A DNA stretch of 64,000 nucleotides from a virus, in the IMG/VR virus record IMGVR_UViG_3300022745_000023, positions 25,635 to 89,634 of that record; one strand, given 5' to 3'. Under the pieces are notes generated by a model. That model did not search any database. It saw only the letters and a program-made list of their open reading frames with translations, and was not told the origin of the DNA. Each line of letters opens with the position of its first letter. Position 1 is the stretch's first letter. Shown here one piece after another: positions 1,727-50,840 of the stretch. The translations under genes were made by a program, and so were the position numbers.

Positions 1727-1742
1727 GTCGTGACAGAAGAAT
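1727..1742 (+). promoter_or_regulatory. Late promoter motif GTCGTGAC-N3-A-N3-T
   Basis: GTCGTGACagaAgaaT; predicted +1 at 1749-1750 coincides with ATG 1750. Confidence 0.7.
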
Positions 1743-1749
1743 GTGGACC

Positions 1750-2586
1750 ATGATTTTGATGGTCCAGCCTCTTGCTTCGGGCAACGCTCTGCGGGTGATT
1801 ATGGCCCCGCCGACCAGTGCGACGCGCATCCGTCTTTTGCGTAAGAGCGCATTGCCCTTTTCTGGGTTTGATGACTCGGACGCGGTTCTGATCGCGGATG
1901 GCATGGACAAGGCCGTCACGGATTACGCCGGCCTGCTTAATGGGGAAGCCGTCTGGTACGGCGCCTTCTATTTGATCGGGGGCGAATGGGTCGCCGCTAC
2001 CCCAAAGCAGGGGACGCCAAGCGCTACCTTCGTGGATATCGGCCCGAATGTGCTCTCCATTGTGCGGGACCGCCTTGAACTCGGCTTGAAGGTCTATGTG
2101 GATCGCGGCGTTCTGGTGCATGAGCGCGGCTTCATCCCAACGATGGTCGCCTCTCCGCAAGTCGAGGAAGCGCCGCTTCCGCTGGTGACGGTCCATCTTG
2201 CGAATGATGCGCCGGATATGCGCGCTGTTGGCGAGGTGGTCGGAAGCGATGTATTCGATCCGGTGTCGGGCAAGTGGCTGTCGTTCGAGGGCGGTATCAG
2301 CAAGACCGACCTGACGATTGTTGCTTGGAGCCTCAATTCGGATGAGCGCATCACTTTGCGCGAGTGCATTGGCGCCATCCTGCGCGCGAACTTCCCGGTA
2401 TTCGACTATGCCGGCCTTCTGCTGGTGTCGTGGAACTGCACCGATATGGAGGACTTCGAGCGATATCAGGTTCCGATGTATCAGGTGGTCTACCAATTTT
2501 CTTGCTACGCGCCATCGGCAATTTCAGCGCCAAGCGATGCAATCAGCGAAGTCACAGTAACCAACTTGGGGAATCAAAATGGCTAA
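1750..2586 (+). CDS. Tail terminator-like structural protein (likely leaderless start at 1750)
   Basis: ORF directly upstream of the sheath region; start chosen from late promoter geometry. Confidence 0.55.
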   Translation: MILMVQPLASGNALRVIMAPPTSATRIRLLRKSALPFSGFDDSDAVLIADGMDKAVTDYAGLLNGEAVWYGAFYLIGGEWVAATPKQGTPSATFVDIGPNVLSIVRDRLELGLKVYVDRGVLVHERGFIPTMVASPQVEEAPLPLVTVHLANDAPDMRAVGEVVGSDVFDPVSGKWLSFEGGISKTDLTIVAWSLNSDERITLRECIGAILRANFPVFDYAGLLLVSWNCTDMEDFERYQVPMYQVVYQFSCYAPSAISAPSDAISEVTVTNLGNQNG

Positions 2587-2839
2587 GGCACCTACCTCTC
2601 TTGACGATCAAACCGATGCTTCGGCTCTCGATGCTTCGGCTCCTGACGCACCGACTCCCGATGCGCCGGATGCGTTTCCCCTCGCCATCGACGAGTTCTG
2701 CGCTCGCCTGTCCGTCTCCGACCGGCGCGTTGAACTGATTGGCGCTTTTCATGCGGTCGAAAAGGCTGCCGGGCGCATCAAGGATCTCGAATCCGCTTTC
2801 GCTGAACGCTTCGCTGCGTTCGTCAATCAGCCCGCGTAA
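2579..2839 (+). CDS. Hypothetical protein preceding the sheath gene
   Basis: Overlapping start/stop, phage-like codon use. Confidence 0.6.
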   Translation: MAKAPTSLDDQTDASALDASAPDAPTPDAPDAFPLAIDEFCARLSVSDRRVELIGAFHAVEKAAGRIKDLESAFAERFAAFVNQPA

Positions 2840-2854
2840 TGGGAGGTTAAACCA

Positions 2855-4567
2855 ATGGCTGTTTTCTTCAACGGTCGGCTGTGGACCAGCCCGGCCACCA
2901 TGTCCAAGGTCGATGATTCGGCCATGTATAACGCCAATGCCAGCACTGGCAATGTGCTGGCCATCATTGGCAAGTCGTCGGGTGGCAAGCCCTTTTCTGC
3001 CTTGCACTTCGGATCGCCCGATGAAGCCAAGGCCGCTGGCATCGACGGCGAATCGCTCAAGGCAATTGCGCTGGCGTTCGATCCCTCGCCGCAGGTGCCC
3101 GGTCCCTCGGAAGTCGTGTTCATCCGTGTCAATCCGGCTGTGCAGGCAGCGCTTGCGCTCAAGGATGCTGCGAATGCGACGGTCATCAATCTGACCAGCA
3201 CGGACTACGGCCTGCGCACCAACCAAATCAAGGTCAAGATCGAAGCTGGTTCCACGACCGGAAAGAAGGTCACTACCGCGCTCGGCAACGACTACTATTC
3301 CGCCGACAATGTGGCGCGTAACGCCTTCTCGATCCAGTATTCGGGCGCAGCGACCACCGCCAACATCAGCGTGTCAAACTCCGCCGTCACGCTTGTTGCT
3401 GATGCGGCGACCACGGTCATCGACCTCAATGCTTTCCAGACCATCGGGCAGGTGGTGGACCGCATCAATGCGGTGGCTGGCTTCGCCGCCTCGGTTCTGG
3501 ATGGCAACTCGGAAAAGCCTGCCCTGAACGGCCTTGACTCGTTGCAGGCCGTGGACTGCAAGAGCGCCGCCGTCACGGTCACGGCAAACTTGCAAGCCAT
3601 CATCGACTGGCTGAACAGTGCGGGCGAGGGTTTTGTCACCGCTGCGCGCCCGGCCAATGTCGGCACGCTGCCGGTAAATGCCCCCTATACCTATCTGGCC
3701 GGTGGGTCTGATGGCACGGTGACCAACACCGAATGGCAGAGCGCGTTCGATGTGCTGCAAACGGTCGATGTGCAATGGCTCGTCCCCATTTCGGCCAGCC
3801 CTTCGATCTGGGCCATGGCTGACACTCATGCCAGCTACATGAGCAACATCGGGCGGATGGAGCGCCGGGTGATCGTTGGTGATGCGACCGGCGTGACCGA
3901 TGATGCAGCGATTGCGGCAGCGAAGCTGCTGAACAGCGACCGCACCTCGTACACGCATCTTGGCATCTACGACTACGACGCCAACGGCAAGCTGACGCTC
4001 TACCCGGCCTATCTGGCGGCGGCGGCGATTGCTGGCGGCTTTGCCGGTTCCAACCCCGGCACGCCGATGACCAACAAGGCGCTCAAGATCCGTGGCATCG
4101 AGCGCAACTTGCGCAACCCGACCGACACCGACCGGCTTATCAACGGCGGCGTTCTCTGCATCGAGAACACCGCCAAGGGCTTCAAGGTCGTGAAGTCGAT
4201 CACCACTTGGCTCGTCAACCAGAATTACAACCGCGTCGAGGTTTCGACCGGCGTTGCGACCGACTATGTGTCGCGTAGCGTCCGCGACAAGCTGGATGAT
4301 CTGCGCGGGGCCAAGGGCAGCCCGACGCTGCTGTCGGAAGCGGTCAGCCGCACCGATACGATCCTCAAGGAATTGGCCAAGAGCGAGGCGCAGGGCGGTA
4401 TGGGCGTGATTGTTGGTGATGCCACCAACCCGGCCTACAAGAACATCACCGCCACGCTTTCCGGTGATGTGGTGACTGTTTCGTTCGAGTGCAGTCCGGT
4501 GATCCCGGCTAACTATATCGCCGTCACCATCCACACCGTTCCCTATTCGGGGTCTGCCTCGGCCTGA
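2855..4567 (+). CDS. Contractile tail sheath protein
   Basis: 570 aa; YLAGGSDG and C-terminal FECSPVIPANYIAVT sheath signature; SD GGAGG. Confidence 0.92.
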   Translation: MAVFFNGRLWTSPATMSKVDDSAMYNANASTGNVLAIIGKSSGGKPFSALHFGSPDEAKAAGIDGESLKAIALAFDPSPQVPGPSEVVFIRVNPAVQAALALKDAANATVINLTSTDYGLRTNQIKVKIEAGSTTGKKVTTALGNDYYSADNVARNAFSIQYSGAATTANISVSNSAVTLVADAATTVIDLNAFQTIGQVVDRINAVAGFAASVLDGNSEKPALNGLDSLQAVDCKSAAVTVTANLQAIIDWLNSAGEGFVTAARPANVGTLPVNAPYTYLAGGSDGTVTNTEWQSAFDVLQTVDVQWLVPISASPSIWAMADTHASYMSNIGRMERRVIVGDATGVTDDAAIAAAKLLNSDRTSYTHLGIYDYDANGKLTLYPAYLAAAAIAGGFAGSNPGTPMTNKALKIRGIERNLRNPTDTDRLINGGVLCIENTAKGFKVVKSITTWLVNQNYNRVEVSTGVATDYVSRSVRDKLDDLRGAKGSPTLLSEAVSRTDTILKELAKSEAQGGMGVIVGDATNPAYKNITATLSGDVVTVSFECSPVIPANYIAVTIHTVPYSGSASA

Positions 4568-4588
4568 TTTCGCCGCTGGCCTGTAAGG

Positions 4589-4619
4589 AAGGGGGTCGCG
4601 CTTTGGTGCGGCCCCTTTT
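4589..4619 (+). terminator. Intrinsic terminator after sheath
   Basis: aagggggtcgcg...gtgcggcccctttt hairpin with T-tail. Confidence 0.7.
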
Positions 4620-4628
4620 CGTTTGCAA

Positions 4629-4644
4629 GTCGTGACTGCAATCT
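4629..4644 (+). promoter_or_regulatory. Late promoter motif
   Basis: GTCGTGACtgcAatcT upstream of tail tube. Confidence 0.7.
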
Positions 4645-50049: not shown

Positions 50050-50575
50050 AAATTAAGGGGCCGGTCTTGTGTGACCGGCCCCTTCTACTATGCCCCGGCA
50101 ATAAAGGTTGCCGATGTTTGTAGTTGGTGGCGGTAGAGGCGTCGGGCGCTCTATGTCGTCCGTGGTGCGCTTGCCGCCTGCCCTTGGTGCGACCCGTTGG
50201 GCAATACGTAACTCGTTGGAGCGATGCTCTCCAAGCTGGCGGCATGGTTTGCATCGCTCCGTTTTGGCAGTTGTTACGGCTCTGCCAACCGTGCCCCATG
50301 TGTTTGTGGTTTGCTCTATGCCTGCGCCAGCAAGCAACTCAACACTGGTGAGTGGGGCCACGCACCGCTGCCTCTGAAAGTCGCTGCCGTCTCTCCGGCT
50401 GTCACCGCTGGCCGGGCCTGCAAGGCTTGCGGTTGGCCCATCTACAACCCCCGGCTGGGGTGGCGAAATCGAGCGACCGATCAACGCCAATTCTTTCTTC
50501 TCACCTTGCTTACCGATGCTGTCAGTCGAAACCGCTCTGTCGCACAAGGATTAGGTCGCCAAGAAAAGCTGTTGG
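50050..50575 (-). ncRNA. Putative large ornate structured ncRNA (~520 nt)
   Basis: Own TTGACA promoter and terminator, many perfect stems and loop-loop complementarities, no credible protein. Confidence 0.6.
50055..50084. terminator. 12-bp hairpin terminator, U-tail on minus strand
   Basis: aaggggccggtc/gaccggcccctt; minus strand continues ttaattttt. Confidence 0.8.
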
Positions 50576-50579
50576 GCCA

Positions 50580-50608
50580 ATTAATACCCGTCAGGTAATC
50601 AATGTCAA
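50580..50608 (-). promoter_or_regulatory. Sigma70-type promoter with embedded operator driving the ncRNA
   Basis: Minus strand TTGACA-N16-TATTAA; spacer contains ATACCcgtcaGGTAA (50584-50598). Confidence 0.6.
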
Positions 50609-50617
50609 TGGGAAAAA

Positions 50618-50692
50618 TGGAGCCGGGTGAGGGGATCGAACCCCCGACCTTCGGTTTACAAAACCACTGCACTACCGCTGTGCTAACCCGGC
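50618..50692 (-). tRNA. tRNA-Thr (TGT)
   Basis: GCCGGGT...TTTGTAA...GGTTCGATCC...ACCCGGCTCCA. Confidence 0.92.
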
Positions 50693-50693
50693 T

Positions 50694-50770
50694 TGGTTGC
50701 GGGGGCCGGATTTGAACCGGCGACCGAACGGTTATGAGCCGTTTGCTCTACCTGACTGCGCTACCCCGCG
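50694..50770 (-). tRNA. tRNA-Met (CAT), initiator-like acceptor stem
   Basis: CGCGGGG...CTCATAA...GGTTCAAATCC..CCCCGCAACCA; C1:A72 mismatch. Confidence 0.9.
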
Positions 50771-50824
50771 CGTCCCCAATACTGATGGCCACCGCGCCGG
50801 TCAAGCCGTGATTGCCGGGGCGCA

Positions 50825-50840
50825 GTCGTGACGCTAGGGT
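50825..50840 (+). promoter_or_regulatory. Late promoter motif
   Basis: GTCGTGACgctAgggT upstream of portal. Confidence 0.7.

Follow-up and report, generated by a model that had tools for sequence, protein, structure and literature searches.

What is the 16-base signal that recurs, always in the same orientation, in front of virion and packaging genes of a phage from an almost unstudied clade, and by what might it be read? The stretch analysed here (the window, 64,000 nucleotides (nt) long) comprises bases 25635-89634 of the 89,634-bp IMG/VR virus record IMGVR_UViG_3300022745_000023, which is 98% complete. The signal consists of GTCGTGAC/T followed by three bases, an A, three further bases and a T, i.e., GTCGTGAY-N3-A-N3-T; its first eight bases are referred to as the box. 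The motif, its orientation, its conservation throughout a clade of phages and its geometry relative to start codons can be observed directly, and they are best accounted for, with a probability of roughly 0.78, by a phage-specific late promoter that lacks a -35 element, has its box read by a phage factor and often gives rise to leaderless transcripts.

An earlier note on this DNA had listed seven copies of the motif, and each was recovered as an exact match on the plus strand, at 1727, 4629, 13807, 17798, 39277, 44847 and 50825. Only 0.19 copies would be expected in the window and none of 100 shuffled sequences reached seven, so the motif is enriched over shuffled controls. The bare GTCGTGAY octamer was found ten times versus 3.5 expected by chance; two further GTCGTGAT octamers, at 19034 (plus strand, within an open reading frame (ORF) of 1037 amino acids (aa)) and at 7378 (minus strand), lack both downstream bases and can be attributed to chance. 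Across the whole 89.6-kb genome, twelve forward copies were counted, together with none in reverse and none of a reversed control pattern. Positions within a site are numbered from the first base of the box as 0, which makes the conserved A and T A11 and T15, and the positions of ATG codons are given as nt from the box start. The predicted promoters of the window and the genes behind them are the following.

1727-1749, plus strand: predicted late promoter, with box 1727-1734, A 1738, T 1742 and predicted +1 at 1749.
ATG at 1750, plus strand: start of a 278-aa adaptor-like virion gene, leaving a leader of 0-1 nt behind the promoter at 1727.
4629-4651, plus strand: predicted late promoter of the tail tube gene; predicted +1 at A 4651, ATG at 4680, 29-nt leader with GAGG.
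7161-7183, plus strand: imperfect copy in front of a non-conserved 151-aa ORF (7218-7673); the box and A11 are present, and A replaces T at position 15.
13807-13829, plus strand: predicted late promoter whose +1 would be the A of ATG 13829, the start of a 387-aa virion/baseplate protein; leaderless.
17798-17820, plus strand: predicted late promoter within the terminal codons of the preceding baseplate gene; +1 at 17820, ATG at 17839, 19-nt leader with GAGG.
39277-39299, plus strand: predicted late promoter of a conserved large protein of 1249 aa; +1 at 39299, likely ATG at 39322, AAGG 8 nt upstream.
44807-44826, plus strand: terminator-like hairpin followed by a T-rich tail; it separates the terL promoter from the 125-aa gene upstream.
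44847-44869, plus strand: predicted late promoter of terL whose +1 would be the A of ATG 44869; leaderless.
50825-50847, plus strand: predicted late promoter of the portal gene, 3' of two minus-strand tRNA genes; +1 at 50847, ATG at 50854 or 50870, short leader.

The genes downstream of the motif are sheath-adjacent, tube, baseplate, other virion, terL and portal genes (the gene behind the site at 17798 is likewise a virion gene, and the 1249-aa protein has no sequence relative in the PDB), whereas the copy at 7161, already described as imperfect, is of doubtful function. To the left of the window, the same box-to-ATG geometry recurs at a 1693-aa ORF and at a 299-aa ORF, the latter of which matches by position a Dolphis gene annotated as capsid maturation protease. 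Five of the twelve dispersed sites of the genome have an ORF that starts at the predicted +1 or +2. A GC-rich hairpin followed by a run of T lies just 5' of the promoter at 4629 and was not called by the terminator scan. The two tRNA genes just 5' of the portal promoter encode tRNA-Thr (50618-50692) and tRNA-Met (50694-50770).

Related phages lend support to every element of this interpretation. The closest named ones, all of 90-95 kb, are the Pseudomonas phages Dolphis and Touem01, Aeromonas phage ST4, Bordetella phage PHB04 and Escherichia phage ECML-606-1; like them, the phage studied here is large, and the sheath, tube and baseplate genes among its structural genes mark it as contractile-tailed. 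Thirteen relatives, whose terL proteins are only 44-61% identical, carry 7-26 copies each, as opposed to 0-1 copies of the reversed control pattern. The counts on the forward and reverse strands are 13/0 in Dolphis, 0/10 in ST4, 1/11 in PHB04, 0/9 in ECML-606-1, 7/0 in fHe-Yen8-01 and 14/0 in Touem01, and seven IMG/VR relatives have 8-26 copies each. Copies are placed between genes or at gene ends and are oriented with the gene strand, and the motif is unchanged across phages whose hosts are Alpha-, Beta- and Gammaproteobacteria. Among the carriers are phages isolated on Pseudomonas (including P. putida), Aeromonas, Bordetella, E. coli and Yersinia. Most of 27 IMG/VR relatives (terL 49-61% identical) have GTCGTGA(C/T/G)-N3-A-N3-T in front of terL and an ATG located precisely 22 nt after the start of the box, while the other bases upstream of terL differ among them; Dolphis, ST4 and Touem01 share this terL geometry. 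The adaptor-like gene is preceded by an exact box in 12 of the 13 relatives, with its start codon (ATG, or GTG in one) at position 22 or 23, and the orthologue of the 387-aa virion/baseplate gene is preceded by the box in nine of 12. The proposal that the box marks a late regulon is supported by its orientation, its retention in 13 relatives and its strand-specific A and T.

The internal anatomy of the site was derived from 163 sites in 13 genomes, except for the column-information and strand-contrast counts, for which 121 sites in ten genomes were used. The consensus reads GTCGTGA-Y-g-s-c-A-n-a-M-T, followed by five weakly constrained bases and then C-A. Because the search pattern itself contained A11 and T15, their significance was assessed from GTCGTGA alone: beside this heptamer, taken without further selection in the ten genomes, both bases are present in 121 of 174 cases on the gene strand and in one of 28 on the other. 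At position 22, 47 of the 163 sites have an ATG from which an ORF of 50 aa or more runs, and 14 have one at position 23, compared with 0-7 ATGs at any other position (positions overlapping the fixed T apart). Among the 102 sites without such an ATG, an A is nonetheless found at position 22 in 47% and a C at position 21 in 44%, which is the usual -1/+1 preference. Three independent features, namely the spacing of A and T as in a -11/-7 pair, the enrichment of C and A and the ATGs at 22 and 23, place the predicted +1 at position 22; A11 and T15 would consequently correspond to -11 and -7 of a minimal -10 hexamer and the box to -22 to -15, which agrees with the register that had been proposed. 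The corresponding arithmetic also holds, in that 22 nt from the box start leads to the A of ATG at 13829 and 44869 and, at 1749, to the base before ATG 1750.

The box is not read uniformly along its length. When A11, T15 and an ORF-opening ATG at position 22 are demanded, 46 sites have an exact box, ten have one mismatch and none has two, and all ten mismatches fall in box positions 0-2 (by our own estimate, a chance of ~2e-4 if mismatches were evenly spread). GTGAY is accordingly the strict core, and reading of the box is asymmetric even though it contains a GTC..GAC dyad. Of the ten variant boxes, six precede one orthologous, divergently transcribed gene of 266-289 aa, and four of these six read GGCGTGAC. 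A CRP-like or palindromic box was rejected, as there is no second half-site and the tolerance is asymmetric. A dyad around the -10 region is likewise not general, perfect arms of at least 6 bp occurring in seven of 163 sites versus 1.6 expected.

With regard to the absence of a -35 box, the original claim stands across the clade, where no column upstream of the box (-45 to -1) is informative, and requires qualification for this genome, in which T occupies the positions 13 and 12 nt before the box (-35/-34) in 10 and 11 of the 12 sites, respectively (binomial ~7e-6 per column, our own estimate). Relatives lack this TT, save for a T-rich patch in the closest one, and it is regarded as a vestige in this genome. 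A sigma-70 consensus scan gave no match at the two sites tested.

The geometry also bears on translation. An SD-like (Shine-Dalgarno) 4-mer precedes three of 61 leaderless candidates, compared with 36 of 84 annotated Dolphis genes. The ATGs at 1750, 13829 and 44869 are the most upstream starts possible for their ORFs, and homologues align from residues 1-5. None of the three had been thought to possess an obvious SD, which holds for 1750 and 13829 but not for terL, where AAGG lies 8 nt upstream; this AAGG is within the -10 hexamer and would therefore be missing from an mRNA that starts at the ATG. The association of leaderless starts with low-copy proteins, which had also been suggested, is consistent with the distribution of the geometry: it is found at terL, the putative prohead protease, the adaptor-like gene, the baseplate gene and the 1693-aa protein, as well as at the portal gene in five relatives, while the tube gene retains a strong SD in all 14 genomes compared. 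The same geometry can be used to correct gene starts. In Dolphis, the annotated starts of gp15 and gp25 lie 162 nt and 60 nt 3' of in-frame ATGs at position 22 (14298-14482 and 23666-23748) that open ORFs of 277 and 395 aa, and the annotated starts are probably too short.

A mechanism that would unite these observations can be proposed. A sigma-70-type region 2 would read the A and T as -11 and -7 of a minimal -10 hexamer, with the box at -22 to -15 replacing the -35 element and being read by a clade-conserved and most likely phage-encoded factor. In the lysogen, the virion genes would remain off, and induction would activate roughly a dozen transcription units. Transcription would begin 7 nt beyond the T, with a preference for an A preceded by C; at ~37% of sites, this A would be the A of the start codon, yielding an mRNA with neither leader nor SD, and the leaderless mode would be used mainly for low-copy morphogenesis and packaging proteins. 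Such a scheme is supported by the terminator-like hairpin directly 5' of the terL promoter and by the temperate nature of the phage, which encodes an integrase (24705-25811) and a cI-like repressor (31472-31951, minus strand). A tRNA-Cys gene (24402-24476) adjoins the integrase gene. The phage also encodes RecT, an exonuclease, SSB, a DnaC-like loader and NinB.

As the same motif serves phages of three classes of Proteobacteria and as the virion genes of a prophage need to be kept silent, a phage-encoded factor is the most likely reader of the box, and candidates were sought. The non-structural clade core consists of a DNA methylase, SSB, a NUDIX protein, a small-terminase-like winged-helix protein, a 125-aa protein and two zinc proteins, and contains no unassigned protein of a kind that would suit a T7-like polymerase. 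Searches for T7-type RNA polymerase (PF00940, for which the control genomes gave no match either), Q protein (PF06530) and Ogr/Delta (PF04606) returned no match. With P1 Lpa, only noise was obtained by tblastn against 14 genomes (E at least 1.4), and hhalign against both zinc-protein profiles gave probabilities below 1%. Several individual proteins were also considered and set aside: a 183-aa core protein, which is SSB; the 188-aa winged-helix protein, which looks like a small terminase and is itself located behind the motif in most relatives; and a 106-aa helix-turn-helix protein with a weak match to a "late transcriptional activator" PHROG, which is not conserved in the clade. The products of two adjacent genes are candidates on grounds of position and conservation only.

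35617-36159, plus strand: 180-aa protein of the clade core with nine invariant Cys/His residues, a candidate reader.
36159-36530, plus strand: 123-aa zinc-ribbon protein, invariably adjacent to the 180-aa protein, a second candidate reader or a co-factor.

Both are located at the end of the replication/nin region, with no motif upstream. Their structural models have pLDDT values of 89.6 and 85.3, and all PDB matches remain below Z 5, the best being generic zinc ribbons (Elf1 and TFIIS, Z 3.7-4.4); profile searches of the PDB and of a protein atlas yielded nothing further. It is conceivable, and is offered tentatively as a minority expectation, that this pair (a 180-aa protein whose fold has no PDB counterpart and the 123-aa ribbon) constitutes a new type of factor that docks on the host RNA polymerase holoenzyme at -22 to -15, acts as a host-independent switch in all three classes of Proteobacteria and sets the mRNA 5' end on the AUG.

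Several points weigh against a late promoter with a phage-encoded reader. All statements on transcription made here, including promoter function, the +1 position, late action and the phage origin of the reader, are inferred from sequence; RNA sequencing runs containing this DNA were sought and none is listed, the three runs that do contain it being DNA runs from freshwater/aquatic metagenomes. A six-frame search for sigma region 2 (Sigma70_r2, PF04542), which a very divergent sigma factor could have escaped, gave no match. The region 4.2 family PF08281 did match above the cut-off, in a 194-aa protein with a LuxR/GerE-type helix-turn-helix (62965-63549, plus strand), and this protein was rejected as the reader because it is not conserved in the clade. 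The zinc proteins match no known transcription factor fold, and both are retained by Morganella phage Mecenats66, in which the motif has been lost except for two degenerate remnants. The box, centred at approximately -18.5, would overlap DNA that is contacted by the holoenzyme itself. Lastly, the GTG at position 22 of one adaptor-like orthologue would make a poor leaderless start.

Mecenats66 deserves particular attention in this regard. Its terL is 40% identical and every core gene is kept, yet not one copy of the motif was found genome-wide; accordingly, a search for a gene that is present with the motif and missing without it found none. The two remnants lie at the two most conserved sites (39560 and 46183): one, before the orthologue of the 299-aa ORF, reads GTCGTGAT plus TAATAAT, and the other, before the adaptor-like gene, reads ATCGTGAT-ggg-A-taa-T with the ATG at position 20. 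Both have -10 hexamers better than usual, a substitute box was sought in this genome and none was seen, and the specificity of the zinc proteins may differ there. Dolphis and PHB04 were the sole known relatives when Mecenats66 was described, and that paper is silent on promoters (PMC9503643). No published description of the motif was found in the literature, full-text matches to the heptamer being of the primer type only, and nothing was found on fHe-Yen8-01.

The alternative that survives best accepts the promoter as described but has the box read by a conserved host component, either RNA polymerase or a universal protein of Proteobacteria, with timing supplied by repressor release or replication. 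The invariance of the motif in phages of Alpha-, Beta- and Gammaproteobacteria is consistent with such a reader, as are the failure to name a phage factor and the retention of the core genes by Mecenats66 without the motif. Conversely, a promoter read by the host would not hold the virion genes off in a lysogen, and within the sequences searched the motif is confined to this phage clade. We know of no host promoter class with a GTCGTGAY box, which also counts against this account, and on balance it is unlikely.

Somewhat less probable still is a different register, in which the box itself would be the -10-like element of a phage-encoded or extracytoplasmic function (ECF)-like sigma factor, transcription would start at approximately position 14-16 and the ATG at position 22 would follow a leader of 6-8 nt without an SD. 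The CGT/GTC of the box recalls ECF -10 elements, and the register favoured here is a prediction from sequence. Such a shift, however, would leave both the -11/-7 spacing of A and T and the C and A at 21/22 unexplained, and the upstream region offers neither the -35-like element that ECF sigma factors need nor a genome-encoded match to Sigma70_r2.

A signal acting at the level of RNA, be it a translation enhancer, a processing site or an antitermination site in the transcript, could exploit the fixed spacing to many start codons, and there is a measurable tendency for the sequence upstream of +1 to pair with the first 24 nt downstream (-8.0 versus -6.1 kcal/mol for mismatched pairs, p ~2e-6, 163 sites in 13 genomes). 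This tendency is of moderate size and similar at leadered sites, and hairpins that flank +1 would form in read-through RNA only, where they could mask the start codon. Moreover, the start-codon distance varies in 102 of the 163 sites, whose genes have their own SD (in the window sites and orthologues inspected), the box matches its anti-SD partner over four bases only and at the wrong distance, and both the spacing of the conserved A and T and the CA at 21/22 are promoter features at the level of DNA; an RNA signal is thus highly improbable. Examples of the pairing are seen in the window at 13807-13845 and 1727-1775 and in genome coordinates at 25062-25110 and 20972-21015. The least credible account of all, a DNA site apart from transcription (a methylation or restriction target, or a packaging or recombination site), can point to the DNA methylase among the clade core genes, but strict orientation, placement in front of genes and single-base start-codon geometry across 13 genomes fit no site of these types.

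If the late-promoter interpretation is correct, a precise map of late transcription would be at hand for a large, almost unstudied clade of ~90-kb temperate myoviruses. It would point to a factor through which host polymerases of three proteobacterial classes are made to use a promoter without a -35, and would suggest systematic leaderless translation of low-copy virion and packaging proteins in Proteobacteria, where this mode is held to be rare. In architecture, the motif resembles two known groups of late promoters, those of P1 and the leaderless ones of Thermus phages. In P1 there are 11, LPpac and LPhot included, each with a -10 hexamer and a short element in place of the -35, and they are activated by Lpa (PMC10695390). 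Both phages are temperate, have genomes of ~90 kb and carry some dozen dispersed promoters of this build (predicted ones in the phage studied here); the parallel with P1 drawn in the earlier note accordingly extends to architecture but not to the sequence of the box or to its activator. The "-22 region" in the P1 record annotation is a 9-bp inverted repeat, AAGTTACTT or ATGTGACTT, that lies 4-9 nt before the hexamer, whereas the 8-bp GTCGTGAY lies 2 nt before it, is strict in GTGAY and tolerant in GTC, and is accompanied by no Lpa homologue in any of the 14 genomes. Promoters of the P1 type also require host SspA, and the late genes of P1 are not known to be leaderless.

Closer in the latter respect are Thermus phage Lalka27a, with 16 late promoters (TAGGGT plus a C at -25) and mostly leaderless transcripts, and YS40, whose transcripts are likewise mostly leaderless (bioRxiv 10.64898/2026.04.20.719267). 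Shared features are late promoters without a -35, a TANNNT-type -10, class-specific upstream bases and a phage factor presumed to modify the host polymerase. Most of the Thermus phage transcripts begin with the A or G of the start codon, whereas the geometry described here predicts a start on the ATG for 61 of 163 sites. The Thermus promoters differ in that the start lies 6 nt after a TAGGGT hexamer, as opposed to the hexamer cAnaMT with a box at -22 to -15 (one window site, at 50825, does read TAGGGT), and in that the phages are unrelated and infect Deinococcus-Thermus hosts in which leaderless mRNA is common, as opposed to ~37% of sites in phages of Proteobacteria. The late promoters of T4, which depend on gp55, gp33 and the sliding clamp, are also numerous and require only a -10-region element without a -35. 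That element, TATAAATA, has no upstream box, and searches of the phage studied here gave no gp55-like or sigma region 2 match; its own DNA polymerase beta-clamp is not conserved in the clade. Lambda Q-type control differs in that PF06530 is unmatched and twelve dispersed sites replace a single late promoter with a Q-binding element and a promoter-proximal pause, and control by Ogr-Delta zinc-finger activators as in P2/P4, which involves an upstream site near -55, differs in that PF04606 is unmatched and no column from -45 to -1 relative to the box is conserved.

Four further observations concern individual loci of the window. The sequence GTCGTGAG at 36520-36527 overlaps the SD and the start of the small-terminase-like gene and lacks the A and T; most relatives have a complete copy of the promoter ~80 nt upstream of this gene, and the match in the window could be chance or a remnant. 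A box with one mismatch, GTCATGAC, at 54134-54158 has A11, T15 and an ATG at position 22, but the ORF is three codons long and the site falls within the end of a 516-aa gene, so it is probably due to chance. The phage encodes its own DNA polymerase III beta sliding clamp at 56522-57718, which is not common to the 13 relatives. Nor is a GapR-like DNA-binding protein encoded at 56165-56494 (Pfam E 1.5e-30); GapR is an alphaproteobacterial nucleoid protein, and the gene hints at the host group of the phage.

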